IMG/VR virus record: IMGVR_UViG_3300020594_000131 | Coordinates: 1 to 25,720 of that record | Source of the DNA: a virus | Lineage: Duplodnaviria; Caudoviricetes | Strand: one strand, 5' to 3' | DNA: 25,720 nucleotides | Part shown: one piece after another, positions 1 to 17,703 of the stretch | Layout of the letters: every line of letters begins with the position of its first letter | Position numbering within the stretch: position 1 is the first letter of the stretch | Program-made: the position numbers and the translations under genes | Notes under the pieces: model-generated | Seen by the model: the letters and a program-made list of their open reading frames with translations, nothing else | Told to the model about the DNA's origin: nothing | Databases searched by the model: none

Positions 1-77
1 GCAAAGGGCAGGGATTTGGCGATATTGCGAAGTTCTGGCCGGTTGCCAACGACAATGACCAGAGGGAGGCGGCGTGA
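1..77 (+). CDS. 3' end of an upstream phage gene (partial), ending ...KGQGFGDIAKFWPVANDNDQREAA*
   Basis: Open frame 3-77 ends at TGA 75-77, which overlaps the next ATG (TGATG coupling). The product cannot be identified from 24 residues. Confidence 0.65.
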   Translation, partial: KGQGFGDIAKFWPVANDNDQREAA

Positions 78-265
78 TGGCCGTCCAATCCGACAAGTTC
101 CTCAACACGGTGCGTGGCAAGGCAATGGTCGGCCATGCCTCGCCAGAGGAAATCATGAAGGTCTTCGATCATCTCGATGCACTCGAAATGTTTCTCGACG
201 ATCACGACGAGGATGATGTGTTCGGAACAGAAGGCTCGCGCCACACAATCGGCATGGAGGACTAA
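77..265 (+). CDS. Small acidic hypothetical phage protein (62 aa)
   Basis: GGAGG RBS at 65-69; start coupled to the upstream stop; stop abuts the next ATG. Confidence 0.65.
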   Translation: MAVQSDKFLNTVRGKAMVGHASPEEIMKVFDHLDALEMFLDDHDEDDVFGTEGSRHTIGMED

Positions 266-508
266 ATGGACAAAGCTCTAGCTGGCCTCGTAGCAATCGC
301 GGCCATCCTCTTCTTCGCGCCGCTCATCGGCGTTCTCGGTGGCGCGTTCGTCGGCTGGGTCGTGGGCCTGTTTTTCGCAGAAACGATCCACGCCTTCCTT
401 GCCGCCGTTGGCATCAACGCGGCGGGCCTTGCGATGTGGCAGATCGGCGCCTCGCTCGGTTTCATCGGCGGGTTCTTCCGCCCGGCTATTCATCGGGCGA
501 AGGCGTAA
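266..508 (+). CDS. Small hydrophobic membrane protein (80 aa)
   Basis: GGAGG RBS just upstream; 2-3 Gly/Ala-rich hydrophobic segments; basic C-terminus. Confidence 0.7.
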   Translation: MDKALAGLVAIAAILFFAPLIGVLGGAFVGWVVGLFFAETIHAFLAAVGINAAGLAMWQIGASLGFIGGFFRPAIHRAKA

Positions 509-588
509 ACACCCAAAACCCCAACTACGCTGCAACAAGTAAATAACGTCGCTCCGCTGCGGACGGAGCGCGCGGAGCGACGGCGCAA
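490..588 (-). CDS. Candidate antisense small peptide MRRRSARSVRSGATLFTCCSVVGVLGVYAFAR (32 aa)
   Basis: TTG start with GGAGGAGG 6 nt upstream on the minus strand; basic N-terminus plus hydrophobic stretch. It could instead be a structured non-coding RNA. Confidence 0.3.
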   Translation of the reverse strand: MRRRSARSVRSGATLFTCCSVVGVLGVYAFAR

Positions 589-709
589 AGCAACCCTCCT
601 CCCCTGATTACTTACGCAGCAGCGAATTACCATGAGAATAAAATGGTTAATAGTTAATCATCCGTAACGATTACCTAACCACACCACCAACAACACGAGG
701 ATTTTATAG

Positions 710-1267
710 ATGGCCAGACTTGGCTCAACATTTGACGCAACCAAACACGATACGACGCAGTCCGATTACTCGGAACTGCCGAACGGCGACTATGAGTTGG
801 AAATCGAGGCCAGCGAAGTAGCTGCCACGAAGGACGGCACGGGCACTATCCTGAAGACGACGATGGTCGTTATTCGCCCGGAGGAGTACGCGAAGCGCAA
901 GCTCTTCAACAATTACAACCTCGAAAACAAAAGCACTCAGGCGCAAGAGATCGGCCAGCGCCAATTCGCCAGCCTTTGCCGGGCGATTGGTGTTTCGGAA
1001 GTCGAGGATTCCGAAGAACTGCACTTCAAAGCGTTCACGGCAAAGATTGGCCTCGGCAAGCCTTCCAAGGACGGCCAGTACCCGGCTCGTGCTGAGATCA
1101 AGAAATACTACTTCCCCGACGAGGGAAATGTCCCCCAGCCTTCAATCGACGCCAATCAGTCTGTAGCGCAGGCTCGCCCAGCCAATGACAACCGACCGGC
1201 CGCGGCAAACAGCAATAAGCCAGCGCCAGCGGCTGCTGTGGCAGGCAAGAAGCGACCTTGGGGCTAA
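710..1267 (+). CDS. DUF669-like phage protein, probable ssDNA-binding protein
   Basis: 'YSELPNGDYELEIEASEV' and 'QEIGQRQFASLCRAIG' pattern; low-complexity tail ending 'RPWG'; position in the recombination module; RBS GAGGA. Confidence 0.75.
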   Translation: MARLGSTFDATKHDTTQSDYSELPNGDYELEIEASEVAATKDGTGTILKTTMVVIRPEEYAKRKLFNNYNLENKSTQAQEIGQRQFASLCRAIGVSEVEDSEELHFKAFTAKIGLGKPSKDGQYPARAEIKKYYFPDEGNVPQPSIDANQSVAQARPANDNRPAAANSNKPAPAAAVAGKKRPWG

Positions 1268-1279
1268 GCCACGCCAACC

Positions 1280-1307
1280 TGCTACTGGCGCGAAAGCGCC
1301 GGTAGCA
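1280..1307 (+). promoter_or_regulatory. 12-bp intergenic hairpin with GAAA tetraloop and no U-tract
   Basis: tgctactggcgc-gaaa-gcgccggtagca (one G-U pair). Confidence 0.55.
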
Positions 1308-1341
1308 ACCACTGTACCGAACCGAACACGAGGAGACTTTG

Positions 1342-2403
1342 ATGAGAGTCAGCATTGACCGCTCACAGCTCGCGCACGCCTTGGCTACCGTCAATCGTGC
1401 CATCGAAAGCCGCAATTCAATTCCTATTCTCGCCAACGTGCTCTTGGCTGTTGAGAACGGCCAGTTGCGCCTGACGGGCACCGATCTGGACGTGGAGATA
1501 ACGACCAGTCTGCCGGTGCTCGACTGCCAGCCTGGTAGCGTAACCGTTCCCGGCAAGATGCTTGCGGACATCGCAAAGCGTGCGACGGGCGACGTTACCC
1601 TTGAGCTGGATGCAGCTAGCGGTGGAGGCCGCCTTACCGTCGCGTCTGGTCGCAGCCGTTACAAGCTCGACGTTTTGCCCGCTGAGGACTTTCCGTCCTT
1701 CAGTGCAGGGAAGTTCGACACGACGCTTGAGTTCGATCTGGCTGCGCTTGTGGCGCCGTGTGTGCACTGTATTTCGACAGATGAGACACGTTACTATCTG
1801 GCTGGCGTTTATCTCCATGCCGTTGACGGCCGCTTGGTTGCTGTCGCAACCGACGGGCACCGGCTGATGCGAAACACAGGTCCCGAAGGTACCCTGCCTT
1901 CCTCGTTGGAGGGCGGCGTTATCCTGCCGCGTAAGCTGGTCGGGATACTGCCGAAGGGCGCTGTCACGATTGAACTGTCCCAAAACAAGGTGCGCATCAC
2001 GTCTGGCTCGACGTTGATCACGTCAAAGCTGATCGACGGCACTTTTCCTGATTATGTGCGCGTCATTCCAACCGGCAATAGCAACATACTTACCGTTGAC
2101 CGGCAGGCGCTCATGAAGGCGGTCGAGCGTGTCGCCGCTGTTGCTGACGACAAATCGCGCGCCGTGAAATTCACGGTCGGCGATGTGCTGCGGCTGATGC
2201 TGGCTGACAAGGCTAGCGATGAAATTGAGGCGACATTCGAAGGCGAGCCTTTGGAAATCGGCTTCAACGCCCGGTACGTCAACGACATGCTTGGCTCGCT
2301 GGATGAAGCAAACGTGCGTTTTGCGCTCGGCGATGCAGGCTCGCCTGCCGTCGTCAAAGGCGAGGGCAAGTGGACGGGCGTGCTGATGCCGATGAGGGTC
2401 TAG
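1342..2403 (+). CDS. dnaN: Phage-encoded DNA polymerase III beta subunit (sliding clamp)
   Basis: Motifs 'IPILANVLL', 'LTGTDLDV', 'DETRYYLAGVYL', 'VATDGHRL', 'SKLIDGTFPDY', 'IGFNARY' and C-terminal 'VLMPMRV'. Confidence 0.95.
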   Translation: MRVSIDRSQLAHALATVNRAIESRNSIPILANVLLAVENGQLRLTGTDLDVEITTSLPVLDCQPGSVTVPGKMLADIAKRATGDVTLELDAASGGGRLTVASGRSRYKLDVLPAEDFPSFSAGKFDTTLEFDLAALVAPCVHCISTDETRYYLAGVYLHAVDGRLVAVATDGHRLMRNTGPEGTLPSSLEGGVILPRKLVGILPKGAVTIELSQNKVRITSGSTLITSKLIDGTFPDYVRVIPTGNSNILTVDRQALMKAVERVAAVADDKSRAVKFTVGDVLRLMLADKASDEIEATFEGEPLEIGFNARYVNDMLGSLDEANVRFALGDAGSPAVVKGEGKWTGVLMPMRV

Positions 2404-2406
2404 GGG

Positions 2407-2586
2407 ATGGCAGTGACAATCCCCGAACCCACGATCTTCAACGCCATTGAATATGCGCTGCGCCATGAAGGCGTGACCGAAATCGCGTTTTCGGAAGATG
2501 GCGAATACGAAGTCGAAATCCACGAGGCGTCCAGCTTGATGCCGTTCGTCATGTGCCTGTTGCGCGAGTTGGAGGTGATTTCCTGA
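2407..2586 (+). CDS. Hypothetical protein, 59 aa (MAVTIPEPTIFNAIEYALRHEG...RELEVIS)
   Basis: Translated by hand (absent from the ORF track); fills the gap exactly and is TGATG-coupled to the next gene. Confidence 0.7.
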   Translation: MAVTIPEPTIFNAIEYALRHEGVTEIAFSEDGEYEVEIHEASSLMPFVMCLLRELEVIS

Positions 2587-3527
2587 TGGCACCGATCCCA
2601 CGGCCTAACTCATCCACGGTGTCGGCCATCTACGCAGCTTACGAGACCCAGGCTAAGTCCTGGGACTCGTGGGGCATAAGCGTGGGAGAGGCGGGCACAG
2701 AATGTGACAGAGCCTTATGGTACGGCTTCCGCTGGGTGTCGGCGCACGAGGTTCATTCTGGCCGCCAACTTCGCTTGTTCGCCACCGGCAATATCGAGGA
2801 AGACCGCTTGGTCGCTGACCTCGAAAGCATTGGCGTCGACGTTTACGGGCAGCAGGACAAAATCAGGCTGGTGTCGGGTTTCGTGCGCGGCAAGTGCGAT
2901 GGCAAGGCAATGGGCGTACCCGAAGCTCCGAAGACTGAACACTTGTTGGAATTCAAGTCGAGCAACGAGAAGGGCATCAAGGAACTGCAGAAGCATAGCT
3001 GCCAGAAGGCTAAGCCCATGCACTATGCCCAGTGCCAACTTGGAATGCACGATTTCGGACTGACGCGCTGCCTGTATCTAGCATCGTGCAAGAACACCGA
3101 CACGCTTTATGCCGAACGTATCGAATATGATGTCGAATTCTGTCTTCGCCTGCTGGCACGCTGCGAACGCATCGTGTTTTCGGACGAGCCGCCCAGCCGT
3201 ATCAGTGAAGATCCGGAGTTTTTCGGATGCTTGTTCTGCAAGCACCGTGGCGTCTGCCACGAAGGCGTGCAGCCGCGCGTAAACTGCCGCACTTGCCTTC
3301 ATGTTCAGCCAGAGCACGGCGGCGACTGCCACATGTCATGCTCGCGCTGGAACAAGCCGTTGTCGATCGACGAGCAGCGAGACGGCTGCCCGGCACACCT
3401 CTACCTGCCGGGACTGATAAATGGCGAGCAGATCGATGCGGACGAGGTCGCAGAGACGGTCACATATCGACTGGCTACGGGTGAGATTTGGGTGGATGGC
3501 GCCAACGACAATAAGAAGGTAGCATAA
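2586..3527 (+). CDS. Cas4-like / PD-(D/E)xK phage exonuclease with Cys cluster
   Basis: 'ECDRALWYGFRW', 'GKCDG...LLEFKS', 'HYAQCQLGM', 'CLFCKHRGVC', 'NCRTC'; RBS GGAGG before ATG 2586. Confidence 0.85.
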   Translation: MAPIPRPNSSTVSAIYAAYETQAKSWDSWGISVGEAGTECDRALWYGFRWVSAHEVHSGRQLRLFATGNIEEDRLVADLESIGVDVYGQQDKIRLVSGFVRGKCDGKAMGVPEAPKTEHLLEFKSSNEKGIKELQKHSCQKAKPMHYAQCQLGMHDFGLTRCLYLASCKNTDTLYAERIEYDVEFCLRLLARCERIVFSDEPPSRISEDPEFFGCLFCKHRGVCHEGVQPRVNCRTCLHVQPEHGGDCHMSCSRWNKPLSIDEQRDGCPAHLYLPGLINGEQIDADEVAETVTYRLATGEIWVDGANDNKKVA

Positions 3528-5305
3528 TGCTTGAACTCAGGTCGTACCAACGCGAAAGCATCGACGCCCTTTACGAATACTGGGCTAATGGCGGCGGTAA
3601 CGGATTAATCGTACTGCCGACCGGCGCCGGCAAAGCTCTAGTCATTGCCAAGATCATTGAGGAGTTGCTTGCTCAATACCCAGACATGCGGATCGTCAAT
3701 GTCACGCATTCGGCGTCATTGGTCGAACAGAACTTCAAGGAGTTCTTGGGCCTTTCTCCGTTCGCGCCTGCCGGCATTTATTCCGCCAGCCTCAATCGCA
3801 GGGACAGCAGAGCACAAGTGCTGTTCTGTGGCATTCAGTCAGTTTGGAACAAGGTCAAGGAGTTGGGGCCAATCGATCTTGTCTTGGTCGATGAGGCTCA
3901 TGCCATTAGCCGCAACGCTAATACTCAATACGGCAAATTCTTCCGCGATGTTCGCGAGACCAATCCAGACAGCAGAACGGCCGGAACGACGGCTACCGAT
4001 TACCGCATGGATTCGGGTCGCCTGACAGATGAAATGGATTCCGATGACGATGTGGACGAAGACGGCAATAAGGTCAGGTTCAAGTTGTTTGACGATGTCG
4101 TCTATGAAGTTGGCATCGCGGAACTTATCGAGAATGGCTACCTGACGAAGCTAACCAGCCACAAGACCAGTGCGAAAATTGACTTGAAAGGAGTAGGCTC
4201 TAGAGGCGGTGACTACATCCCGGGTCAATTGTCTGCCGCGGCAGAGAAGATCATTGAAGACGCTATAGCGGAAGACATGGTCATGTCTGAGGGCCGACGT
4301 GCTGGGCTTTTCTTTAGCACCAGCAAAGAAAACGCACGCCATATTGCCGAGTGTATTCGCAGCCATGGACGCTCGTGCGCTGTCCTTACAAGTGATAATG
4401 CGCACCAGACCAAGGAGGTATTTGAAGGCTTCCGATCCGGCAAGTACTGGGCAATTTCATCGGTCTCAATGATTACAACCGGGACGAATTTCCCGTTCGT
4501 GGACTTTATCAGCCTTATCTTGTCCACGAAATCAGCGGGAAAACTGGTGCAGATTTTGGGGCGTGGCACTCGCAACTCACCTGGAAAGACAGAGTGCTTG
4601 ATTGCAGACCACGGCAAGAACCTCGCCTATCACGGGCCAATTGATCAGATTCGTCCCAAGGCCCCGGGCAGTGGAGACGGAGAGGCGCCTCGAAAGACCT
4701 GCCCAAGTGAAGAAACACTGGGAGCGGTGCGGGATGAGGAAGGAAAGTTCGGCTGCGGCGAACTCATTCACGCGTCCGCCAAGATTTGCCATTGCTGCGG
4801 CTACATTTTCCCACCTAGCGGAGAGGTTAAAATTACGGCGACCGCTGCTGATGTGCCAGTTCTATCGAAAGACAGTGCCAGCGAAAGAGAAGTGACGCGC
4901 AGGACGTTTTATTTCCATGAGGCCAAGCCAGGGAAAAAAGACACGGTGAAGGTCAGTTACATGTGCGGCGTGACTGTCATGAATGATTGGCACGGCCCCG
5001 GACATACAGGTTTTTTCAAGTCGAAAGCAGATCGTTATTGGGCGCGCCACGGCGGTCTCCGTCCCTTTCCTTCAACTGTCATGGAATGGCTAGAACGCCA
5101 GAACGAACTTCGCCCTACAGAGATTATCAAAGTACGTCCCAACGGAAAATATTGGGAGGTTCTAGAGGCCGTACCGGGCGACGGCGCGCCACAAGGCGAG
5201 AATGACAACACGCCGGAGGCTGGCAACGACAACGTGCCTACGGCAAACTACGGGCGGGTATCTGCCGGCCTGGCTGAAATATTGGACGACGAGATACCAT
5301 GGTGA
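3527..5305 (+). CDS. Superfamily II (DEAH; RadD/YejH-like) DNA helicase with C-terminal Zn finger
   Basis: 'LRSYQ', Walker A 'PTGAGKA', 'DEAH', 'TAT', motif VI 'QILGRGTR', 'CHCCGYIF'. Confidence 0.92.
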   Translation: MLELRSYQRESIDALYEYWANGGGNGLIVLPTGAGKALVIAKIIEELLAQYPDMRIVNVTHSASLVEQNFKEFLGLSPFAPAGIYSASLNRRDSRAQVLFCGIQSVWNKVKELGPIDLVLVDEAHAISRNANTQYGKFFRDVRETNPDSRTAGTTATDYRMDSGRLTDEMDSDDDVDEDGNKVRFKLFDDVVYEVGIAELIENGYLTKLTSHKTSAKIDLKGVGSRGGDYIPGQLSAAAEKIIEDAIAEDMVMSEGRRAGLFFSTSKENARHIAECIRSHGRSCAVLTSDNAHQTKEVFEGFRSGKYWAISSVSMITTGTNFPFVDFISLILSTKSAGKLVQILGRGTRNSPGKTECLIADHGKNLAYHGPIDQIRPKAPGSGDGEAPRKTCPSEETLGAVRDEEGKFGCGELIHASAKICHCCGYIFPPSGEVKITATAADVPVLSKDSASEREVTRRTFYFHEAKPGKKDTVKVSYMCGVTVMNDWHGPGHTGFFKSKADRYWARHGGLRPFPSTVMEWLERQNELRPTEIIKVRPNGKYWEVLEAVPGDGAPQGENDNTPEAGNDNVPTANYGRVSAGLAEILDDEIPW

Positions 5306-5868
5306 TCATAGACAATGATAATTTGCCAGTAGAGGAGTGGCGGCAAGTTCCTTCTATTCTAGAGGTTGAAGCTAGCTCACACGGGCGAATAAGGCGAAAA
5401 CCTCATACTGGAATAATGCCGCACGGCGGTACCCGTGAGTACAAATCTGAGCCTAGATTTGGAAGCATAACGTCGGCGTCAAAAGATGCTAGGCATTTAT
5501 ACTTCAATGTCCTCTATCGCGGTATTGGTAACGTTAAGGTTCACTTTGCAGTATGTGAAGCTTTCCACGGAACAAATCCAGATGGGAGTAGCGGTGTCCG
5601 ACACCTCAACGAGAATGGGTTAGACAATCGGCCCACTAACCTTCGGTGGGATTCACAAAAGATCAATCTGAATGATCCCGCGTTCAAGAGTTATCAGCGC
5701 CGTCGCGTTTCACCGAAATCCAACTCCAGACTGAGTAAACGTGAAAAGAGATCCGGCATATATGACAGCATCCTGGATATCGGGATGATGATGATGGAAA
5801 AAAGGAAAATTCGGGCTGATAACGATAATTTTCCGCCCATTAACGGGATGCGCCGCGAGGCATGTTAA
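5299..5868 (+). CDS. NUMOD4-HNH homing endonuclease-like protein
   Basis: NUMOD4-like 'EEWRQVPSILEVEASSHGRIR'; HNH 'VHFAVCEAFHG...VRHLNENGLDNRPTNLRWDSQKIN'; more AT-rich than its neighbours. Confidence 0.8.
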   Translation: MVIIDNDNLPVEEWRQVPSILEVEASSHGRIRRKPHTGIMPHGGTREYKSEPRFGSITSASKDARHLYFNVLYRGIGNVKVHFAVCEAFHGTNPDGSSGVRHLNENGLDNRPTNLRWDSQKINLNDPAFKSYQRRRVSPKSNSRLSKREKRSGIYDSILDIGMMMMEKRKIRADNDNFPPINGMRREAC

Positions 5869-5924
5869 TTTACCTACCGCTGCTTATCGCAGCAAAACCA
5901 ACCACCAAAACACGAGGAGCAATG

Positions 5925-6665
5925 ATGACGGAGAATTACGACCCGTATAACCCGGCGCCTATTGGTCACAATAGACCGCCGCTTACTGTCTACGAGACTG
6001 TAAAACAGGAAATCGAAGACCTGTTTGATGAAGCTAAAAATTTCGCGGACGGTGAAGCAATAGACAATCAACAGTTGGCCGACGCGATCACCGAACTGCA
6101 CGACAAACTGCATGAGGCCGGGAAGCGCGCCGACGAGGCCCGCAAGGACGAAGCGAAGCCACATGACGACGCAAAGGCTGAGATACAGGACCGCTACAAC
6201 AAGCTGATCGGCAATACGAAGTCAGTCAAAGGAAAAGTCGTTCTTGGCAAGGAAACGTTGCAGGCCTTGCTGACGCCATGGCGCAATAAGCTTGTTGCCG
6301 AAAAGGAAGCTGCCGCGCGCGCTGCGCGTGAAGAGGCTGACCGCATTGCGCGTGAAGCGCAGGAGGCCATGCGGGCCAGCGCAGGCAATCTCGAAGAGCG
6401 CGAGAAAGCCGAAGAGCTGCTTGCCGAGTCGAAGAAAGCAGACCGATGGGCCAAGCGCGAAGATCGGTCAGCAACCACGGGCACGGGGCTGCGCACTATC
6501 TGGCACTGCAAGTTGGAAGATGAAGGCAAGGCACTCGACTGGGCATATGGTCGTGCGCCAGAGCGCTTCAAGGAACTCGTGCAGTCGATGGCCGAAGAAA
6601 CTGTGCGCGCCGGGATGCGTCAGGTGCCGGGGTTCAAGATCTGGGATGAGCGGGTGGCGCGGTGA
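5925..6665 (+). CDS. Hypothetical coiled-coil phage protein
   Basis: GAGGAG RBS at 5914-5919; long A/E/R-rich helical region; C-terminal 'RQVPGFKIWDE'. Confidence 0.75.
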   Translation: MTENYDPYNPAPIGHNRPPLTVYETVKQEIEDLFDEAKNFADGEAIDNQQLADAITELHDKLHEAGKRADEARKDEAKPHDDAKAEIQDRYNKLIGNTKSVKGKVVLGKETLQALLTPWRNKLVAEKEAAARAAREEADRIAREAQEAMRASAGNLEEREKAEELLAESKKADRWAKREDRSATTGTGLRTIWHCKLEDEGKALDWAYGRAPERFKELVQSMAEETVRAGMRQVPGFKIWDERVAR

Positions 6666-7176: not shown

Positions 7177-7248
7177 GTCCGGGCCACGATCAACACCCCG
7201 CCAGCCACCAACTGGCGGGTTACCACCACGAAACACGAGGAGATGAGG

Positions 7249-8649: not shown

Positions 8650-8668
8650 CCGACACGAGGAGAATTTC

Positions 8669-9706
8669 ATGAGCAAGAGACTTACCGACCAATCTATCGA
8701 AACGAAAACCGCCGCGGTGAAAGCCGTCAATCAAGTCATCACCGACAATTACGCCATCTATGAAGGCGACGCTTGCGAGCTCATTCGTGGAGTACCGACG
8801 GGAACGGTGCATTTCGGCATCCATAGCCCGCCTTTCGAGGGCCTTTATCGGTTCAGCAATTCCGACCGAGACATCAGCAACAACGATGGCGATGGCTTTT
8901 GGGAGCACTATGCCTACCTGATCCAGGAATTGCTACGCGTGACCATGCCGGGCAGAATCCACGCAGTGCATTGCATGCAGTTGCCAACCAGCAAGATCAG
9001 ACACGGCCATATCGGCATGCGCGACTTCCGCGGCGAGGTCGTTCGTGCTTACGAGGATGCAGGGTGGATTTTCCATAGCGAGGTCTGTATCTGGAAAGAT
9101 CCAGTTGTCGCTCAGCAGCGCACGAAATCCATCCGTCTTCTGCATAAGCAGATTACCAAAGACAGCACCATTAGCGGGCAAGGCCTTGCAGACTATATGC
9201 TGATGTTCCGCAAGCCGGGCGATAATCCTGACCCGGTTGATGGCATGTTCGACCGTTATGTCGGTTATGGCAACGAACCTACGGCACTAGCGGATCGGCT
9301 GGCATCTGGCGAAGATCGTGCACGGGCCGAGAAATGGTTCTCGATTGAAGTCTGGCAGCGTTATGCATCGCCGGTCTGGATGGACATTAACCAGACACGC
9401 ACCCTGCAATATCGATCGGCGCGCGACGAGAAAGACGAGCAGCACATTTCGCCTTTGCAGTTGGATGTTATCGAGCGCTGCATCGAACTGTGGAGCAATC
9501 CCGGCGACGTCGTTCTGACACCGTTTTTGGGCATCGGCAGCGAGGTTTACGGCGCAGTTGCTGCCGGGCGTAAGGGTATCGGGTTCGAGTTGAAGCCGTC
9601 CTACTTCTCGCAGGCTGTGCGCAACATTGCGGCGCTTGATTACAGGCAAGACAACATCTTCGACGCGGCCAACGACAACTACGCGGAGGCTGCCAATGCA
9701 GCCTGA
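8669..9706 (+). CDS. DNA amino-methyltransferase (N4-C/N6-A family, beta-class motif order)
   Basis: Catalytic 'HSPPF' near the N-terminus; 'HISPLQLDVIERCIELWSNPGDVVLTPFLGIGSE' SAM-binding region near the C-terminus. Confidence 0.9.
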   Translation: MSKRLTDQSIETKTAAVKAVNQVITDNYAIYEGDACELIRGVPTGTVHFGIHSPPFEGLYRFSNSDRDISNNDGDGFWEHYAYLIQELLRVTMPGRIHAVHCMQLPTSKIRHGHIGMRDFRGEVVRAYEDAGWIFHSEVCIWKDPVVAQQRTKSIRLLHKQITKDSTISGQGLADYMLMFRKPGDNPDPVDGMFDRYVGYGNEPTALADRLASGEDRARAEKWFSIEVWQRYASPVWMDINQTRTLQYRSARDEKDEQHISPLQLDVIERCIELWSNPGDVVLTPFLGIGSEVYGAVAAGRKGIGFELKPSYFSQAVRNIAALDYRQDNIFDAANDNYAEAANAA

Positions 9707-10013
9707 CGATGTGTGTGCTGTCTGCGCCCGCCACGCCGTAGGCCTCGGCGTGCAGGCAGATCGCGAGCCGATCCGCTGGCTGTGCAAGGAATGCGCCGAC
9801 ATCGCCGAGCACATTCGGCATCGGCGTCGGTTAGATCCTTACGAGCTGCGTGCCCTTGATACCGGCGTCGAGGCGGTTGGTTCATACCTTCAAGAGCTTG
9901 GCAAAACCGACCTTAAGGACATGGACGAACTGGAAGCCAGGCAACTGGTGAAAGCCGCGTGGGAAGGCTGCGGGCGGGGGATGCGCGCGGCTTTGACGGA
10001 GGCGCCGTTTTGA
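9696..10013 (+). CDS. Hypothetical protein with CxxC...CxxC Zn finger (DUF6511-like)
   Basis: GGAGG RBS; CAVC and CKEC; C-terminal 'EAPF'. Confidence 0.7.
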   Translation: MQPDDVCAVCARHAVGLGVQADREPIRWLCKECADIAEHIRHRRRLDPYELRALDTGVEAVGSYLQELGKTDLKDMDELEARQLVKAAWEGCGRGMRAALTEAPF

Positions 10014-10708
10014 TGAACGATAACAGCCGCGGCCTTGTGATCCTGCTATGCAATCTCACGGACGCCATGGCCACGCCATGGGCCGACAATGGCTATGACG
10101 TCCTGATGGTTGACCCTCAGCACGGCATGACACATCAAGAAGGGCGAATTACGCGGTTTGCTGGAACGGTGCTGGAAGCAGCGCCGCTTCTGGCGCATCA
10201 CATTCGTCGAACGAAGATCGTCTTCGTGGCAGGCTTCCCGCCATGCACGGATGTCGCGGTCAGCGGCGCCAGGTGGTGGGCGGAAAAGAGGGCGAGGGAT
10301 CCATATTTTCAGGCAAAAGCAGCCATAGTTGCCGAGCAATGTCGGATGGTGTGTCTACTATCCGGGGCGCCTGGATTCTTTGAAAACCCCGTTTCGGCAT
10401 TCAGCAAGGTATTCGGTGCGCCTTCGCATACGTTCCATCCACATGACTACACCGGTATTTGCCTCGACGACAACTATGTGAAGAAAACCTGCCTTTAGGC
10501 GTTCAATGGATACAAAATGCCTGCTCCGCAACGTGACCAAACGCTAGGAAAGCCAGACAACCGTATCTGGATTGCGCCACCAAGCCCGGAACGCGCCAAC
10601 ATTCGAAGCGCGTTTCCACAGGGATTCTCGATCGCAAACTATTTGGCGAACGCGCCTCATCTGCGAGCCGCCAACGACAACTATGCAAATAGCAGTTGCG
10701 TGGCGTGA
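10013..10708 (+). pseudogene. Short phage C5-cytosine-methyltransferase-like gene interrupted by an in-frame TAG (10496-10498)
   Basis: 'GFPPCTDVAVSGARW' and 'ENPV' motifs; the frame continues through KKTCL*AFNGYKMP to the stop at 10708. Confidence 0.75.
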
Positions 10709-10711
10709 CGG

Positions 10712-11209
10712 TTACGAACCTTTCTTACCCTCATAAAGGGGTGCCCATTCCCCGATGAGTGCCGCTTCGAGAGTATTCATGACAGCCTGAGGCGTGCTTT
10801 CAGGAAGGAGAAAATCAATCCGCACCGTATTCTTTTTGATCCATTCATTCACCGTTTCCGGCGTGAGTATCACACCAGAAATCGGTGATTTATCGCAGAT
10901 GCTTCTGGCCAACGTGCTGCTAAGCCCGGAGATCACATTGTAATGATGAAAACTGTAACGTGACTGATTGCTTTGGCTCACCTGGCCCACCTTCAACGTG
11001 CGGAGATTTCCGTGAAGGTGAAATGAGTAAATAGCTTTGCGGTTCTTTGGGAGCGAGGGAACTTTCCCGCCTTCATGATCCCATACGCGCTGTTCAACAC
11101 TTAGCCCATCAACATCGCTAAAGTGTTGAATAATCTTATTATTTATAAACGCAAGTGACTCGTTTGCCTTGATTGCCAGAGGCGATTTCACAGATCGTTT
11201 GAAAAACAT
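10712..11209 (-). CDS. Antisense moron, GIY-YIG-like putative nuclease
   Basis: 'AIYSF...LKVGQ...SRY...LEAALIGEWAPLYEG' follows GIY-YIG motif order; AT-rich; opposite orientation to the backbone. Confidence 0.6.
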   Translation of the reverse strand: MFFKRSVKSPLAIKANESLAFINNKIIQHFSDVDGLSVEQRVWDHEGGKVPSLPKNRKAIYSFHLHGNLRTLKVGQVSQSNQSRYSFHHYNVISGLSSTLARSICDKSPISGVILTPETVNEWIKKNTVRIDFLLPESTPQAVMNTLEAALIGEWAPLYEGKKGS

Positions 11210-11238
11210 GCACCCACCCCATTTCTGAGGGAGATTTT

Positions 11239-13407
11239 ATGCATATATCGCAGGAACTCAATACCGACCCCATGCTTGACGTCGCCCTGTCCTACACGGC
11301 GCGCAGCTGGCCGGTTTTTCCGTGCCGCGCCGCCGATGAGGAATTCGTCGACGAGGACGGCCTTATCGAAATTCTCGCCACCAAAACTCCGCTGACCTCA
11401 AATGGGTTCCGCGGTGCAACGCTGAACGAGCGCATCGTGCGTGAGCTCTGGCGTCGCAATCCCGGTGCAATGATCGGCGTGCCGACCGGTGCGCCTATTG
11501 GTGCATGGGTGCTGGACATCGACCCGAAGCATGGCGGGCCGGATACGCTTGCAACACTCGAAGCCGAGCATGGCGCATTGCCCGCCACGCTTACCGCTGA
11601 AACCACGAGCGGCGGCCGACATTACTTCTTCAAGCATAAGGCTGGCGTTCGCAATCGTGGCGCGTTGGGCGCTGGCATCGATGTTCGTGGCGACGGTGGC
11701 TATGTCATTGCGGCCGGCAGCGTGCCTGCTGTCGGCCAGCCTTACCGCTGGCTGGTCGATATGGAACCGGTCGAGGCTCCAGACTGGTTGCTGGAGCTCG
11801 TTCTGCCACGGTCATACGACAGCACGACCACGTACCAAGCGCCGTCGGTCTCTGGTACGATTAACGATCGGTATGTCGAGCGCGCGGTACAGTCCGAGTT
11901 GGACGACCTCGCCATGGAACCGATGGGCAACCGCAACAATCGCCTGAACGACGCTGCGTTTCGGCTGGGCACCTTCGTTGGTGCCGGGGCCTTGTCGGAA
12001 TCCGAAGCGCGGGCCTTACTGCAGGACGTGGCGCGCGGATGGGGCAGGGACTTCCCACGTTGCTGCAAGACGATCGACAACGGACTGAAGGCGGGCAAGA
12101 TGCATCCGCGTCAGGCACCGGAGGCAGTCAATGACAATACCAAGCTCGTGGACATCACGCGCATGCTCGACAATGCCCGGGCGAAAGTTGATGAGCAGCG
12201 TGAACCCGAAGCTCATAACGAGGAACCAGAGGCACCGCAGGTCGTCGAAGAAGCCCCCACTGACCAACCCATCCTCGCAGCTACACCTTTCCAGTGGAAA
12301 GACCCGTCGACACTGCCACGCCGCGAATTTGCTTTCGGTCGCCATTTCATCCGCAAGTATGTCTCGGTGACAGTTGCTCCCGGTGGCCTAGGCAAAACTG
12401 CAAACAGCATCGTGGAAGCGCTGGCCATGGCGTCAGGCAAGGCTTTGAACGGCGTGAAGCCGCCGCGTCGACTTAAGGTCTGGCTGTTCAACGTTGAAGA
12501 CCCGCGCGACGAGCTGGAGCGGCGCATCATGGCGGCGTGCATTCACTTCAATCTCAAGCCTGAAGACATCGACGGTCATCTTTTCCTCGACAGCGGTCGC
12601 GAGCAGGAGCTTGTCGTGGCGATTGACGACAAGAAGGGCGTCAAAATTCAGGAGCCGATCGTCGAGGCGGTGGCAGAAACCATCCTTGCCAATGGCATTG
12701 ACGTAATGATCGTCGATCCATTCGTGTCGACGCATCAGGTCAACGAAAACGACAACGGCGCAATCGACAAGGTCGCAAAGCTCTGGGCGCAGATCGCCGA
12801 CTACACGAACTGCTCCATCGACATTGTGCACCACCTGCGCAAGGTGAGCGACCGCGAAGCTACCGTCGAAGATGCTCGCGGTGCGGTGGCGCTGATCGGT
12901 GCTGCGCGTTCGGTGCGCGTGCTTAACCGAATGTCAGAAGCGCAAGCCAATGAGGCAGGCGTTCCCGGTATGGATCGGTTCGGCTATTTCTCGATCACAT
13001 ACGGCAAGTCGAACCTTACTCCGCTGTCGCATCGGCTGGACTGGCGCCATATCGAAAGCGTGGCACTGGGCAACGGGCGAGGGCTGACGCAGCCGCAGGA
13101 CCACGCGCCGGTCGTCACCGAATGGCATTGGCCATCCAGCGAGGAAGTGGCTGAAGGTCTGTCGGACGAGCAGAAAGACGCAATCCGCGGCGCGGTAAAC
13201 GGCGGCATGTACAAGCAGGCGCCGCAAGCCAAGGACTGGGTCGGGCACGCCGTGGCTTATGCGCTGGGGCTGGATATCGATGACGAGGTGCAGAAGAAGC
13301 GGGCCAGCCTTATTACTAAGGCGCTATTCAAGGAAGGTTTCTTGGCAAAGGTCGAGGAGCGCGATCCGATACAGCGGAAGACAATGTCGTTTGTGCGGGC
13401 GGTTTGA
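11239..13407 (+). CDS. Bifunctional DNA primase/polymerase fused to an AAA (RepA-like) helicase
   Basis: Prim-Pol motifs 'WPVFPC', 'WVLDIDPKHGG', 'TTSGGRHYFF', 'IDVRGDGGYVIA'; Walker A 'APGGLGKT'; 'IVDPF'; 'IVHHLRK', 'DARGA'. Confidence 0.92.
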   Translation: MHISQELNTDPMLDVALSYTARSWPVFPCRAADEEFVDEDGLIEILATKTPLTSNGFRGATLNERIVRELWRRNPGAMIGVPTGAPIGAWVLDIDPKHGGPDTLATLEAEHGALPATLTAETTSGGRHYFFKHKAGVRNRGALGAGIDVRGDGGYVIAAGSVPAVGQPYRWLVDMEPVEAPDWLLELVLPRSYDSTTTYQAPSVSGTINDRYVERAVQSELDDLAMEPMGNRNNRLNDAAFRLGTFVGAGALSESEARALLQDVARGWGRDFPRCCKTIDNGLKAGKMHPRQAPEAVNDNTKLVDITRMLDNARAKVDEQREPEAHNEEPEAPQVVEEAPTDQPILAATPFQWKDPSTLPRREFAFGRHFIRKYVSVTVAPGGLGKTANSIVEALAMASGKALNGVKPPRRLKVWLFNVEDPRDELERRIMAACIHFNLKPEDIDGHLFLDSGREQELVVAIDDKKGVKIQEPIVEAVAETILANGIDVMIVDPFVSTHQVNENDNGAIDKVAKLWAQIADYTNCSIDIVHHLRKVSDREATVEDARGAVALIGAARSVRVLNRMSEAQANEAGVPGMDRFGYFSITYGKSNLTPLSHRLDWRHIESVALGNGRGLTQPQDHAPVVTEWHWPSSEEVAEGLSDEQKDAIRGAVNGGMYKQAPQAKDWVGHAVAYALGLDIDDEVQKKRASLITKALFKEGFLAKVEERDPIQRKTMSFVRAV

Positions 13408-13521
13408 TTCAATATGGATAGCACAGCTTGAACACCGAATGCCACTCGCACCAGTGAGCCGAATCTAATAAAAAAGAGTAGTGCCGCCTACGAATCTTCC
13501 TCGATCAAATTGGAATACACT

Positions 13522-14607
13522 ATGGACAGTGCGGTGCCCTTCCTGCATGCGCGTGGTCAGTCGGCTGATGAAATTCGGCGGTTGGATTGGAGCCGAAACC
13601 CTATCGGCTTGCCAGAAAGTTGGCCGGCGCCATTAGTCACAGCAGTTCAGATGATGTTGGCTTCGCATTTTCCCAAAGCAATCATTTGGGGGCCAGAATA
13701 TATCACGATTTATAATGACGCCTTCAAGCCAATTCTCGGTGAAAAAGAGAACTGCATGGGAGCTTCATTTCGCGATATTTGGTCGGAGGTTTGGGATGAG
13801 TTGCTACCCATGGTTCAGAAAGCTTATGCTGGCGAGGCGACTTTTATCGAAGACTTTCCGCTCGTTATCGATCGACACGGATTTGATGAACAATGCTATT
13901 TTACATTCTGCTATAGCCCGATCTTTGATCAACAAGGTCGGGTCGGCGGGATGATCGACACGGTCATTGAGACCACCCAAAAAGTGGAAGCCGAGAAGCA
14001 CGCCAGGATTCTCAACGCGGAGCTCGCGCATCGCATCAAGAACACGTTTAGCGTGGTATCCGCTATTGCGAGCCAGACTTTCAATAACAATGCTGATGAA
14101 GAAGTCATCAACACGTTTACAAAGCGACTTTTTGCTCTGGGAAATGCTCATGACGCCCTTCGTCTGGGTAAGAGCTCGGAAGGTTCGTTGCGGCTGATTG
14201 TGTCGGGCATAACAACTGCGCTGGCCGTAGCCGATCGCGTTCACATGACTGGTCCGGATGTATCGATTGGTCCCAAGGGTGCGTCGACACTTTCGCTTTT
14301 AATTCATGAACTAACGACCAATGCGATCAAGTATGGTGCGCTTTCTAATCCTACGGGGCATGTGCAAATGACCGTCGCCATATCCAAAAGACAGGTTGAG
14401 CCGGTTTTCTCGATGAATTGGATCGAAATCGGAGGGCCGCAGGTCGCCCAACCAACAAAAACAGGATTCGGCTCCAAGCTCATAAAAATGGGGCTTCTCG
14501 GAGCGGGGGAAGTTAGTTCCGAGTTTAAGCCAGAAGGATTCCAGGCAATGTTTACCGCGCCACTCCGGCAGCTGCAGGAGGAAGGACGATTGTCTAATTC
14601 CACGTGA
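13522..14607 (+). CDS. Cytoplasmic PAS-domain HWE-family sensor histidine kinase (orphan)
   Basis: H-box 'ELAHRIKN', N-box 'IHELTTNAIKYGALS', 'WIEIGGP' (WxE), 'TGFGSKLI'; N-terminal PAS-like 'DWSRNPIG...WP...YNDAF'; no transmembrane segment. Confidence 0.92.
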   Translation: MDSAVPFLHARGQSADEIRRLDWSRNPIGLPESWPAPLVTAVQMMLASHFPKAIIWGPEYITIYNDAFKPILGEKENCMGASFRDIWSEVWDELLPMVQKAYAGEATFIEDFPLVIDRHGFDEQCYFTFCYSPIFDQQGRVGGMIDTVIETTQKVEAEKHARILNAELAHRIKNTFSVVSAIASQTFNNNADEEVINTFTKRLFALGNAHDALRLGKSSEGSLRLIVSGITTALAVADRVHMTGPDVSIGPKGASTLSLLIHELTTNAIKYGALSNPTGHVQMTVAISKRQVEPVFSMNWIEIGGPQVAQPTKTGFGSKLIKMGLLGAGEVSSEFKPEGFQAMFTAPLRQLQEEGRLSNST

Positions 14608-14631
14608 TAGCAACCAGTATAATTAATCAGG

Positions 14632-14658
14632 AAAGCGGGGCTTCGGCTCCGCTTTTTT
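14632..14658. terminator. Intrinsic, probably bidirectional terminator
   Basis: aaagcggggc-ttcg-gctccgc-tttttt between convergent genes; cUUCGg loop. Confidence 0.85.
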
Positions 14659-15151
14659 ATTGAGTACCGCGAGCGCCTGTATCCTCGGTGTCCGACTTTC
14701 CGTTTGAGAAAAATATCAGGGTGAGCAGCGCAAACACCATTATGATAATAGCAACGTCGAAGGCGTTTACAGCGCAAGCGATTCCGATAGCTCCTGTCGA
14801 CCAGAGACTGGCCGCTGTTGCCGTACCTTTGACCGACGAACTTAAACGAAGGATTGCACCACCGCCGATAAAACCCATGCCCGTGATCACACCTTCAATA
14901 ATGCGCGCAAGCGCTTCTGGATTGTCGGTGGTTATTCCTTCTGTAGCTTGGATAAAGCCGCAACTGGCAACGGCGACCAGAGGAAAGGTCCGAAGGCCCG
15001 CGCTCCGCTCTTCGCGTTCTCGGTGCCAACCTATCGGCAACGCCAGGATGTACGCGGCGGCAAGCGCTATAATATGAGGCCAGACGTTGAAATTATCGGA
15101 CTTTAGCGCCTCTTCGAGCGCGATCTGAAGCTGATCCATGTCTTCTATCAC
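14657..15151 (-). CDS. MgtC/SapB family membrane protein
   Basis: 'PIGWHRE...SAGLRTFPLV', 'GVITGMGFIGGGAIL', 'VKGTATAASLW...IGIA'. Alternative start at ATG 15139. Confidence 0.92.
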   Translation of the reverse strand: MIEDMDQLQIALEEALKSDNFNVWPHIIALAAAYILALPIGWHREREERSAGLRTFPLVAVASCGFIQATEGITTDNPEALARIIEGVITGMGFIGGGAILRLSSSVKGTATAASLWSTGAIGIACAVNAFDVAIIIMVFALLTLIFFSNGKSDTEDTGARGTQ

Positions 15152-15172
15152 TCTGGGTCAATGGCTTCAGTA

Positions 15173-15197
15173 AACGTAGTTGCCGCGGTTCAGTTCC
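15173..15197 (-). promoter_or_regulatory. EcfG/RpoE2-type (general stress sigma) promoter for the MgtC-family gene
   Basis: Minus strand GGAAC-tgaaccgcggcaacta(16)-CGTT. Confidence 0.8.
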
Positions 15198-15357
15198 CGA
15201 CGGGAAACTTTGATACGCAGATAGCGATTTAGATATTGTTAGAACACAAGGGCAATCTCAGACATCGGTCAGCCTATTTCTTCAGCTGACTTCACGTTTC
15301 TATGAATTTTCTTTGACGGTTCCACCGGGATTTGCCTCAAGAAGTGGCCTAAAACAA

Positions 15358-15382
15358 GGAACCTATCAGCAAATGGTTCGTT
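15358..15382 (+). promoter_or_regulatory. EcfG/RpoE2-type promoter for the DUF892 gene
   Basis: GGAAC-ctatcagcaaatggtt(16)-CGTT, 26 nt upstream of the ATG. Confidence 0.8.
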
Positions 15383-15408
15383 TCGTTTTCCCCAACAGGA
15401 GGACGATC

Positions 15409-15882
15409 ATGAAAACTCTGTCTGATATTTTCGAGCATACCTTGCAGGACATTTATTACGCAGAGAACGCCATTACCAAGGCGCTTCCGAAGGTTGCCAA
15501 GGCGGCGAAAAGTGCCAAACTGAAGCAAGCCGCCGAGGAACATCTCGAAGAAACCAAGGGGCAGATCACGATCTTGAATGAGGTGTTTAAGTCTCTCAAA
15601 CTGAAGCCTACCGCCGAGAAATGCGATGCTATCGAAGGGCTAATCAAGGAAGCAGACGGCTTGATGGAAGAGGCAGGCGGCACGGCACTCGACGCCGGCC
15701 TACTCGCAGCTTGTCAGGCAGTCGAGCATTATGAAATTTCCAGATACGGTTCGCTGCGCGAATGGGCAAAGGAGCTCGGACACACGGAAGCGCACACCTT
15801 GCTGACCCATATTTTGGATCAGGAAAAAGCCACAAATAACAAACTCACGAACTTGGCGATAAGCCAAATTAATAAGGCATAG
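15409..15882 (+). CDS. yciF: Ferritin-like DUF892 (YciE/YciF family) stress protein
   Basis: 'LQDIYYAENAITKALPK', 'HLEETKGQI', 'CDAIEGLIKE', 'QAVEHYEISRYGSL', 'LDQEKATN'; AGGAGG RBS. Confidence 0.92.
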   Translation: MKTLSDIFEHTLQDIYYAENAITKALPKVAKAAKSAKLKQAAEEHLEETKGQITILNEVFKSLKLKPTAEKCDAIEGLIKEADGLMEEAGGTALDAGLLAACQAVEHYEISRYGSLREWAKELGHTEAHTLLTHILDQEKATNNKLTNLAISQINKA

Positions 15883-15958
15883 TTTTTTGGCTTCAAACGA
15901 GAGGAAGCGCACCGATCTTCCTCTCGTTTGTTCTTATTATACAACCCACCATCACAAT

Positions 15959-16160
15959 CAAAATACAACTTCTGATACTGCGTACTTCTTTGTGCGCACT
16001 TCTCGAAAAACCCTAAAAGAAGTTCGCAAATGCACGCTGCTTTTGGTGCGTAAGAGTTCTTATATAGAAACTTACGCACAAAGCGCGCGGCGCGCAGTTC
16101 TCGAGTTTTGAGAAGTGCGCACTTTTCCAGATTTTGGCCAATTCCAAAATACAACCTGAT
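15959..16160. repeat. Nested inverted/direct repeat array, probable phage replication origin
   Basis: IR gtgcgcacttctc 15992-16004/16110-16122; IR gtgcgtaag 16046-16054/16071-16079 around an AT-rich core; several TGCGnACTTC-like copies; flanking DR caaaatacaac 15959-15969/16145-16155. Confidence 0.6.
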
Positions 16161-16279
16161 TTGAGGGTGGCCCAAAATATTAGCCGCGCTGCGTCGCCAT
16201 TAACACCACATTTATTGTGACATTCCACACTCCTCTTGCCGCTACCAACGGCATACCGCAATCAACACGAGGAGCTCAC

Positions 16280-16789
16280 ATGGCACGCAGCCGCACACGC
16301 GCGCCTTCGTCTACGACCACAACCGCCACCAAAACCCAAACCGTCCGCATCAACGGCGCCCGCGTCAAGATCACCACCAAGGCTGGGCGAGTGACAACAA
16401 AGCCAGCCCTGCCGCTCGAATGGGAATTACAGGCGGCACAGGTATCCGCTCTCCGCCGCCTGCCACAGTACCAGCGCCAGTTCCTGCTGGCCGGTGACAT
16501 GAACGCCAGCAAGCGTGGACCAAGAGCCCAGGCCCAGGCAATCGCAACGGGAATGACCAGCGGCGAACCTGACCTTCGCATCTATGGCGAATACGGGCGT
16601 CTGCTGATGATCGAGAACAAGGTCGGGCAGGGAAGACTGTCGCCGGCCCAGAAAGACCGCCACGCGGCCCTTGAGCGGCTTGGCTACGCTGTTCTGGTCC
16701 TCAGGGCCACGACGACGACAGAAGCCGCTGAGCGGGCCGTTACGGCGGTTCTGGGGTGGCTTGCACAAGAGAAGGGGAAAGCAGCATGA
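16280..16789 (+). CDS. VRR-NUC domain nuclease (probable Holliday junction resolvase)
   Basis: 'GMTSGEPDL...LMIENKVGQGRLSPAQKDRHAALERLGY'; GAGGAG RBS. Confidence 0.85.
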   Translation: MARSRTRAPSSTTTTATKTQTVRINGARVKITTKAGRVTTKPALPLEWELQAAQVSALRRLPQYQRQFLLAGDMNASKRGPRAQAQAIATGMTSGEPDLRIYGEYGRLLMIENKVGQGRLSPAQKDRHAALERLGYAVLVLRATTTTEAAERAVTAVLGWLAQEKGKAA

Positions 16790-17703
16790 AGAATACAAGA
16801 CATGGATCGCTCGCAGAACAGTTGAAGGCACTTATGGCGTATCGCAATCGACCGGAAGGTCAGCGAGAACCATTACAGACGAACTGGTCTGTTGCGCCTG
16901 GAGCGAATGACAATGACCCGGAGGAAGTCGCCGACATGCGTTACGAGCGGGACTGGCGGCAAACACCGTCCGTGCAAGCCATCATGCAAAACGTTGCGAC
17001 CGGCGATATCGAGAAGAACGGGAATGGACAGATTGTCCGCATAGGCAATCTGCGGTTCAGTGACGGTAACCAGACTGAAGTCGGATATGTGCTCGGCATA
17101 GACGGTGAAGTTATTCAGGCCGACATACGCATGCCGACCGGTGCAATGCTCGGCATGAAAGATAAGCCAGACCGAGCGTCGGGCGGCGGAGTAGACCCAA
17201 AGGATACCAAGGCCAGCAATCACTATTTTGAAGATATGCTTGGAACACTGCCGCATCGATATATTCCATCCGGCAAGCGCCGAAATGGTACGAATTACAG
17301 CGCTGAGGAATCCGCCCGAATTCTCGCAGATGCCTACGCAAACACCGACATGGAGAAGGTTACGTTCACACGATATCCAAAAGGGTTGCCGTGTGGCTCG
17401 CCCAAGGTGGCCGATAGTTTCCTCGGTATGCGAAAGACGACGTGTGCTGGTGGAGGAGACGAAGCGTGGGAAGATACACTGTCTGCGATGATCGATCGTG
17501 ATCTGTGGTTTGAAGCGCTTCAAGAGTTGAAGGACAGGGATCGGGATGTACTAGATGCCGCGTTGGAGGCGGCGAATTACACGGATGTCGGTATAGCAGC
17601 AGGGCAGTCTCGCCATTATGCCGACAAGCGCAGCGGTGGGCGTAAAGCACTGCTTGCTGCCAACGACAATCTAGCGGCTGCAATAAAAAAATATGCTGCG
17701 TAG
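16786..17703 (+). CDS. Phage protein, possible late transcription regulator with a C-terminal HTH-like region
   Basis: ATGA overlap with VRR-NUC; 'ALQELKDRDRDVLDAALEAANYTDVGIAAG' resembles a sigma region-4 HTH; last early gene before the late region. Function inferred from position. Confidence 0.6.
   Translation: MKNTRHGSLAEQLKALMAYRNRPEGQREPLQTNWSVAPGANDNDPEEVADMRYERDWRQTPSVQAIMQNVATGDIEKNGNGQIVRIGNLRFSDGNQTEVGYVLGIDGEVIQADIRMPTGAMLGMKDKPDRASGGGVDPKDTKASNHYFEDMLGTLPHRYIPSGKRRNGTNYSAEESARILADAYANTDMEKVTFTRYPKGLPCGSPKVADSFLGMRKTTCAGGGDEAWEDTLSAMIDRDLWFEALQELKDRDRDVLDAALEAANYTDVGIAAGQSRHYADKRSGGRKALLAANDNLAAAIKKYAA

Follow-up and report, generated by a model that had tools for sequence, protein, structure and literature searches.

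The early genes of the tailed phage recorded as IMGVR_UViG_3300020594_000131 repeatedly encode ANDN, the four residues that also head the tmRNA tag of its candidate hosts. The window (the whole stretch of DNA that was analysed, 25,720 nucleotides) carries the motif on several unrelated early proteins. In the explanation that we favor, ANDN docks these proteins on the host adaptor SspB, carriers ending in AA are destroyed by ClpXP, and the arrangement filters out leaky expression; we regard this combined reading as probable, with considerable room for doubt. The original observation is confirmed, and its interpretation is borne out in part. SspB binding and degradation of the phage proteins are likely on sequence evidence, and the purpose as a leak filter is more weakly suggested.

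Distribution of the motif in the window

The 19 early genes (4619 aa) contain 14 in-frame copies of NDN in nine genes, the number of proteins given in the original prediction. Shuffling gave a mean of 0.52 copies and reached 14 in none of 2000 trials, so that the enrichment is about 27-fold. ANDN itself occurs seven times against 0.056 expected; the control words NND and DNN occur once and not at all. At the DNA level, AAYGAYAAY has 15 matches against 1.46 expected, a count that 0 of 100 shuffles reached. The motif mostly has the form [AP]ANDN and is placed at N-termini, in linkers and in tails. The majority of sites are not covered by a domain match; one is part of a predicted helix, and several carriers lack an AA end. 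The five ANDN tails and the endonuclease tail first noticed are all present at the positions given for them. The proposed absence of NDN from structural and cargo genes was reproduced, with no copy in seven cargo genes (1174 aa) or seven late genes (2103 aa), but just 0.08 and 0.18 copies were expected there, and the related phage 16-3 carries ANDN in its portal and tape measure proteins. The packaging and head genes of the window (19234-25720) contain no in-frame NDN. These and all genes below are on the plus strand.

The partial gene at 1-77, with the tail VANDNDQREAA (ANDN at 45-56) and a stop overlapping the next start, was identified as the 3' end of a Sak4-like recombinase, and its 16-3 homolog is annotated likewise. 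Unique Sak4 homologs have the motif in 27 of 70 cases and an AA-like end in 63 of 70. The Cas4-domain exonuclease (2586-3527) ends in GANDNKKVA (ANDN at 3501-3512), and just 13 of its 84 unique homologs retain the motif. The frequent loss in both families weighs against the docking explanation, and that of the Cas4 tail against a pure degron. The SSB-like protein (DUF669/phrog_2300, 710-1267) carries PANDN (1178-1192) in a tail without an AA end, and the SF2 helicase (3527-5305) has ENDN (5198) and GNDN (5222) in a tail that terminates in DDEIPW. Their homologs have the motif in 67 of 69 and 74 of 80 cases, respectively, and never an AA-like end. A phage homolog of the DNA polymerase III beta-clamp (1342-2403) lacks the motif. 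The NUMOD4-HNH endonuclease (5299-5868) bears DNDN (5311) on its N-terminal side and ADNDN (5815) on its C-terminal side, with the terminus REAC. The most tag-like tail, AANDNYAEAANAA (9665), belongs to the N6/N4 DNA methyltransferase (8669-9706), whose homologs have the motif in 12 of 15 cases and an AA-like end in all 15. The primase-polymerase/AAA helicase (11239-13407) has VNDN (12127) in a linker and ENDN (12745) within its AAA domain match, where the copy is probably structural. The VRR-NUC nuclease (16280-16789) terminates in KAA and has no NDN.

Two of the five tails proposed as tag mimics are doubtful, a further point against a pure degron. The C5-MTase-like gene (phrog_757, 10013-10708) has MNDN at its start and AANDNYANSSCVA (10667) near its end. 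It appears to be a pseudogene, because an in-frame TAG (10496-10498), the same in contigs from three studies, interrupts it and leaves this tail on a downstream 3' remnant. The putative regulator (phrog_36072, 16786-17703) has GANDN (16900), AANDN (17656) and the terminus YAA. In its structure model the former lies in a low-confidence loop and the latter in the confidently predicted last helix (residues 284-304). Among 120 homologs, the N-terminal NDN is found in 105, the C-terminal one in 117 and the AA end in 62. This protein shows a weak likeness to sigma region 4; a Foldseek search with it gave no significant match, the best useful one being 3hug (E 0.22).

The host tag, SspB and anti-sigma factors

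The host is likely an Ochrobactrum-type Brucella, whose tag is ANDNKAQGYALAA. The tag given as rhizobial in the original prediction, ANDNYAEARLAA, is the real tag of four other alphaproteobacterial genomes but differs from that of the likely host. All 16 alphaproteobacterial tags that were read have N after AND and AA at the end, whereas 11 of 12 tags from other bacteria have ANDE or ANDD. The Caulobacter tag is AANDNFAEEFAVAA (PMC9393093). In all five candidate host genomes the tag has the ANDN head and an SspB gene is present; no SspB was found in the five motif-rich phages. Compared with the host tag, the phage tails match in its invariant parts, the ANDN head and the final AA. Sequence searches matched SspB to the structure entries 2QAS, 2QAZ and 2NYS, and SspB-alpha reportedly reads NDN, a finding credited to Chien et al. 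in 2007. The motif is also enriched over the host background, with eight ANDN words in the prophage DNA (approximately 52 kb) of one host (G001) and 16 in the remaining 4.35 Mb. A class-wide count of [AP]ANDN (944 words in 301 genomes) says little about the motif, since 14 of the 40 regions that we inspected belong to the conserved cores of the enzymes Prs and FabD.

Host anti-sigma factors share the motif. Among 120 rhizobial RskA-type homologs, which were collected using a motif-bearing query, 112 have NDN within a variable linker, and 117-119 have AA in the membrane helix that follows. In an unbiased sample of genomes bearing RskA, only three of the 13 from Alphaproteobacteria have the motif, with AANDP in one more, and none of the 12 from other bacteria (p 0.22 or 0.10). 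The SspB site of RseA is not known to be tag-like. The order of NDN before a membrane AA is the layout of tether and AA degron reported for RseA, SspB and ClpXP (10.1101/491043; PMC8103513).

Association of the motif with AA ends

AA-like ends are found in 32 of 49 families with the motif and in 62 of 438 families without it. Of 161 ANDN sites, 86 lie within 26 residues of the protein end, and in 37 of 57 tails the motif is separated from the end by 12-14 residues, compared with 13 in the host tag. An AA-like end is also present in 11 of 19 cases in which the motif is remote from it. AA ends also exist without the motif (13 of 71 in phage BiPBO1; 22 of 202 families in high-GC loci).

The original prediction saw these tails as C-terminal copies of the tag. 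The ANDN head and final AA fit that description, but the motif is short and independent of position, the middle of the tail is free, and the best-kept sites, those of the SSB-like protein and the helicase, never accompany an AA end. These sites, and the tandem copies that the helicase and certain SSBs carry, favor a different role, in which the motifs chiefly keep SspB occupied. During lytic growth this would jam the host's clean-up after trans-translation as well as the breakdown of anti-sigma factors, and with it envelope stress signalling, while phage protein turnover would be of minor importance. The presence of the motif in host anti-sigma factors and a stretch in the upstream p73 family that resembles the C-terminal tail of SspB would also suit such a decoy. 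We consider it unlikely in view of the strong association of the motif with AA ends, and the integrase-less phage RHph_X2_26, which would profit most from jamming, has no motif.

The AA ends could instead be a by-product of Shine-Dalgarno sequences and ATGA overlaps, with ANDN binding some other host protein. Coupled genes do have AA ends more often, and the host shows this too (15 of 80 against 10 of 307). Of 51 AA-like ends in coupled genes, 43 include a Shine-Dalgarno-like word, and the most frequent ending is GCA-TGA. However, the association persists in uncoupled genes, which do not overlap (15 of 27 with the motif against 28 of 299), and none of the 60 coupled genes of RHph_X2_26 ends in AA. 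The data thus support a tie between AA end and motif that is independent of gene overlap, and the by-product explanation is quite improbable.

Distribution among relatives

The motif is all-or-none by lineage, with 6-21 words in 25 records and zero in 16. Most close relatives of the window phage are proviruses that carry an S24 repressor; any integrase and repressor genes of its own would lie outside this 25.7-kb record. RHph_X2_26 is nested among the motif-rich phages in the Cas4 and helicase trees, as a single case on a long branch, and gave no match to an integrase or S24 repressor. It has no ANDN, and AA ends occur in 4 of its 125 genes and in none of its 60 coupled genes, against 92 of 417 genes and 55 of 159 coupled genes, respectively, in five motif-rich genomes; this joint lack supports the docking explanation. 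One other record (G006) is motif-rich despite having no PF00589 match, a point against it.

RHph_X2_26 also lacks the beta-clamp and p72-p74, whereas the clamp and p73 are present in all five motif-rich genomes. This co-occurrence and the all-or-none pattern would be expected if the reader of ANDN were a phage protein, either the clamp or the small KOW/SH3-like p73 (to which neither the atlas nor Pfam assigned a family), and the motif served assembly or localisation. That reading is very doubtful, as ANDN also heads the host tag, occurs in host anti-sigma factors and is found on Xis, portal, tape measure and a phosphoesterase, and one locus (L200) has a clamp homolog without the motif.

Some temperate phages of Alphaproteobacteria are not enriched (BiPBO1, one word; Azospirillum Cd, one; Y3_1, two), which counts against the docking explanation. 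Also against it, no parallel enrichment of ANDE or ANDD was found in 15 gamma- and betaproteobacterial phages (0-4 words of ANDE, ANDD and ANDN in each phage) or in 80 distant Cas4 loci (ANDN in three, ANDE in none, a single ANDD in three). In 58 high-GC loci, no replacement motif was apparent.

Selection at the protein level

Selection on the protein, as originally proposed, was borne out. Among 945 cluster representatives from relatives, 254 of 260 sense-strand motif words are in frame. In five families the motif residues are 88-99% identical among homologs and the flanks 50-68%, with normal synonymous change. An element acting as DNA or RNA, either a binding site or a scattered piece of ssrA, might translate as ANDN by chance and account for the preference for GAC at the Asp codon (used in 131 of 161 motifs but at a rate of 56% elsewhere). 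Such an element is hardly credible given the reading frame, the use of every Ala and both Asn codons, synonymous change like that in the remainder of the genes and a search of the window that found no tmRNA gene.

A possible role in lysogeny

The original prediction named a proteolytic timer or a safeguard against leaky expression in the lysogen as possible purposes. In the SspB-docking explanation, ANDN would bring early phage proteins to host SspB, which would hand those ending in AA to ClpXP. Nucleases, helicase, primase, methylases and recombinase that leak out in the lysogen or in an aborted induction would be cleared. Upon full induction SspB and ClpXP would become saturated, aided by the carriers without AA, such as the SSB-like protein and the helicase. 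More tentatively, Alphaproteobacteria may in general use ANDN to dock proteins on SspB, in the tmRNA tag as well as in anti-sigma factors, a use that seems not to have been described, and one phage lineage may have written the motif across its early proteome as a threshold switch; leaky products would be destroyed in the lysogen, AA-less carriers would saturate the adaptor on induction, and the system would be dropped when the lineage turns lytic. A full-text literature search, with most subscription papers beyond its reach, found no prior description. If the explanation is true, a large share of the early proteome is controlled post-translationally through one four-residue host motif, in a layer of lysogeny control additional to repressors. 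It would also make native SspB substrates of Alphaproteobacteria recognizable by a simple feature of their sequence, beginning with RskA-type anti-sigma factors.

Comparison with known systems

The phage tails share with the alphaproteobacterial tag of the SspB/ClpXP pathway the ANDN head, the AA end and, in most C-terminal cases, the 12-14 residue spacing. They differ in being encoded in the genes rather than added on stalled ribosomes, and the phage motif also occurs N-terminally and in linkers, with a free middle and many carriers without AA. Genome-encoded substrates with an AA-type ClpX degron are known from E. coli RseA, whose tether is SspB, and mycobacterial RsdA/RskA (10.1101/491043; PMC8103513). 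In those cases membrane proteolysis uncovers the degron of a single protein, whereas the putative phage degron would be constitutive and spread over as many as some 18 unrelated proteins. Lambda O and MuA, listed among ClpX motifs (PMC8138137), are likewise phage replication or recombination proteins under the control of host ClpXP, the control that we propose here. In each of these phages a single protein is concerned, its motif is a different one, and an adaptor motif spread across the proteome is not known. Pseudomonas phage pf16 also engages the SspB pathway, but it encodes the adaptor itself (PMC5587285), whereas the motif-rich phages, which have no SspB of their own, would supply a putative ligand. 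With the 16-3-like temperate siphophages, the window phage shares a module of Sak4, SSB, clamp, Cas4, helicase and primase, and its Cas4 is 70% identical to that of 16-3.

Results

The window, a 25.7 kb virus contig, comes from a siphophage and covers its replication and recombination module, a block of cargo genes and the start of the head genes. Among named sequences, its Cas4 is closest to that of Rhizobium phage 16-3 (70%), the nearest prophages with named hosts reside in Ochrobactrum-type Brucella (95%), and the regulator matches its Ochrobactrum sp. counterpart at 94%. The cargo genes (10712-19125), a stress-type set, include a PAS-HWE histidine kinase, an MgtC family protein, DUF892 and a DUF326-like four-helix protein.

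The early genes contain 14 NDN words spread over 9 of 19 genes, a number matched in none of 2000 shuffles (mean 0.52), and 7 ANDN words against 0.056 expected from shuffles. NND and DNN, permutations of the motif, occur once and not at all, respectively, and 15 motif words were observed at the DNA level against 1.46 expected. A sequence check found every tail of the original prediction as stated. Its claim that late and cargo genes lack NDN holds for the window, but few words are expected there, and the portal and tape measure genes of 16-3 carry ANDN (2/21 called virion-region genes of that phage vs 12/72 others). The tail of the C5-MTase-like gene (phrog_757) is preceded by an in-frame TAG (10496-10498), a real nonsense codon that is identical in contigs from three studies (X1, X3 and X4); the position lies outside the coverage of a fourth run. 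An AlphaFold model of the regulator (16786..17703; mean pLDDT 70, pTM 0.30) places the N-terminal ANDN in a low-confidence loop and its C-terminal counterpart in a confident helix. Directly ahead of the methyltransferase motif lies QDNIF (9647-9664), resembling a beta-clamp-binding motif; similar LF words occur in other methyltransferase tails of relatives, and a clamp is encoded by the phage. The helicase ends in DDEIPW (5288-5305; DDIPF in relatives), which resembles the SSB C-terminal motif.

Protein-level selection, as originally proposed, was borne out by comparison among homologs. A home-made hexamer caller, which overlooked some real genes such as the window HNH, yielded 2553 proteins (2158 unique) from 99 loci and genomes. 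Of the 260 sense-strand words in 945 cluster representatives, 254 were in frame; the motif context is [AP][AS]NDNx, and P is over-represented two positions further on. For five families (SSB, Cas4, helicase, MTase and Sak4), the three motif residues were 88-99% identical across homologs in which motif-less sequences were under-sampled, against 50-68% for the flanks, with synonymous change at the motif much as in the remainder of the gene; for the primase, which offered few sites, the values were 81% vs 73%. By direct count, the motif was present in 67/69 SSB, 74/80 helicase, 12/15 MTase, 27/70 Sak4 and 13/84 Cas4 homologs, and at the C-terminus of 117/120 regulator homologs. The Asp codon of ANDN is GAC in 131/161 sites vs 56% elsewhere.

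Among phages, the motif follows lineage. ANDN words number 18 in 16-3, 20 each in NV1.1.1 and X2_25, 7-19 in four IMG/VR proviruses and 18 in the called genes of TM3_3_14B; a second set of 41 records divides into 25 with 6-21 words and 16, all distant, without any. ANDN, ANDE and ANDD words number 0-4 in each of 15 gamma/beta phages and five non-rhizobial alpha phages.

The motif also matches the invariant parts of the host tag. All five candidate hosts possess an alphaproteobacterial tmRNA and SspB, with the tag ANDNKAQGYALAA in three genomes and ANDNNAKEYALAA in two. The fourth residue is N in 16 alpha tags and E or D in 11/12 non-alpha tags; since our script accepted frames with AN[DE] or AD at the start and A[AV] at the end, the informative parts are this residue and the variable middle. 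NDN is reportedly read by alphaproteobacterial SspB. None of five motif-rich phages carries an SspB gene. ANDNNAKEYALAA matches a published table entry for A. tumefaciens (PMC12493166), and the Caulobacter tag is as the prediction had it (PMC9393093). Of 25 ANDN words in candidate host G001 (reversed-word control, 17), one lies in ssrA, 16 elsewhere and 8 in a prophage stretch of ~52 kb, an enrichment whose density is an upper estimate because the stretch runs from first to last site.

Discussion

We consider the motif observation real and the proposed mechanism likely. ANDN on early proteins would dock them on host SspB, and carriers with an AA end would then be degraded by ClpXP; these two steps taken jointly are probably correct. 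The original prediction of a C-terminal tag stood in part: AA ends are tied to the motif, but the motif may lie anywhere. Of 161 ANDN sites, 86 lie at most 26 residues from the end and 26 lie 27-45 residues from it; 17 are close to the N-terminus and 32 internal. With one representative per family, [AVC]A ends were found in 32/49 motif carriers vs 62/438 other proteins, and even carriers with a distant motif have them in 11/19 cases, so that the unit appears to be a terminal degron combined with a tether at any position. When both lie near the C-terminus, their spacing is 12-14 residues in 37/57.

AA ends could instead be a by-product of gene overlap, where the ribosome-binding site and start codon of the next gene fall within the end of the previous one, and this contributes: a Shine-Dalgarno-like word is present in 43/51 coupled AA-like ends, and AA ends occur in 15/80 coupled vs 10/307 uncoupled host genes (11 of the 20 host regions used were picked around ANDN sites). 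However, such overlap leaves the link to the motif unexplained, as uncoupled carriers have these ends in 15/27 cases vs 28/299, and among coupled genes alone the figures are 17/22 vs 34/139.

As to purpose, degradation through SspB and ClpXP might, tentatively, rid lysogens of early enzymes that leak through and damage DNA, up to the point where induction saturates this route. The SSB-like protein and the helicase, both without an AA end, would suit the part of titrators in this scheme and likewise that of decoys, a rival reading that is improbable.

RHph_X2_26 has the replication and recombination module and the same host species as X2_25, and falls within the motif-rich clade on a long branch (Cas4 tree, 98/95; quick helicase tree, SH 99). 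It has no ANDN, AA ends in 4/125 genes, and no integrase hit, S24 hit or minus-strand gene; Miki, the phage most closely related to it, has been reported as lytic (PMC13611946). The case is a single event, and it is confounded because the clamp and p72-p74 were lost as well. Temperate lifestyle alone is insufficient for the motif, because the temperate alpha phages BiPBO1, Azospirillum Cd and Y3_1 contain just 1-2 words each. Upstream of the window-equivalent stretch, a small KOW/SH3-like p73-like protein (16-3 p073; L142:5768-6073, plus strand) is found in 5/5 motif-rich genomes and is missing from RHph_X2_26. It ends in NV[IV]xVDF(T)K then GAA/GVA, resembling SspB's C-terminal VVSLDAFRKK, the ClpX-binding tail. 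The adjacent p74 homolog (L142:6073-7008, plus strand) ends in a domain of the ribosomal L7/L12 C-terminal type (Pfam E 9e-6).

The individual parts are known: the tmRNA tag, SspB, RseA-type substrates and single phage ClpXP substrates, with a phage link to the SspB pathway (PMC8138137, PMC5587285). Among the matches listed by full-text searches of largely open-access literature, neither the phage-wide motif nor the linker motif of RskA is described.

Host proteins offer a parallel. Across 301 alphaproteobacterial genomes there are 944 [AP]ANDN words (8 from two unpublished genomes, G249 and G049, used for this count alone). Of 40 regions inspected, 14 are enzyme cores (Prs, FabD); the others include an RskA-type anti-sigma factor, a CheW, a tape measure protein and proteins that are small or mobile. 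A search with this rhizobial anti-sigma factor gave 637 homologs; of the best 120, 112 have NDN within a variable linker and 117-119 have AA in the membrane helix after it; in the query (L291:1035-1772, minus strand) this AA ends 18 residues past the motif's Ala. The layout parallels the phage motif with its AA end. Published work describes exposure of VAA by membrane cleavage and delivery of RseA to ClpXP by SspB (10.1101/491043, PMC8103513, 10.1101/2020.06.12.148478). An unbiased set of 131 Pseudomonadota genomes contained 25 with RskA_C; in these, ANDN was present in 3/13 alpha (plus one AANDP) vs 0/12 non-alpha genomes, a difference that is not significant. In some other RskA proteins, a stretch resembling N[IV]VxL takes the place of NDN. 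Small host proteins (L281, L284, L292 and L307) carry PANDN or AANDN right before a hydrophobic segment and a CheW (L287) begins MAANDN; these are possible native SspB substrates.
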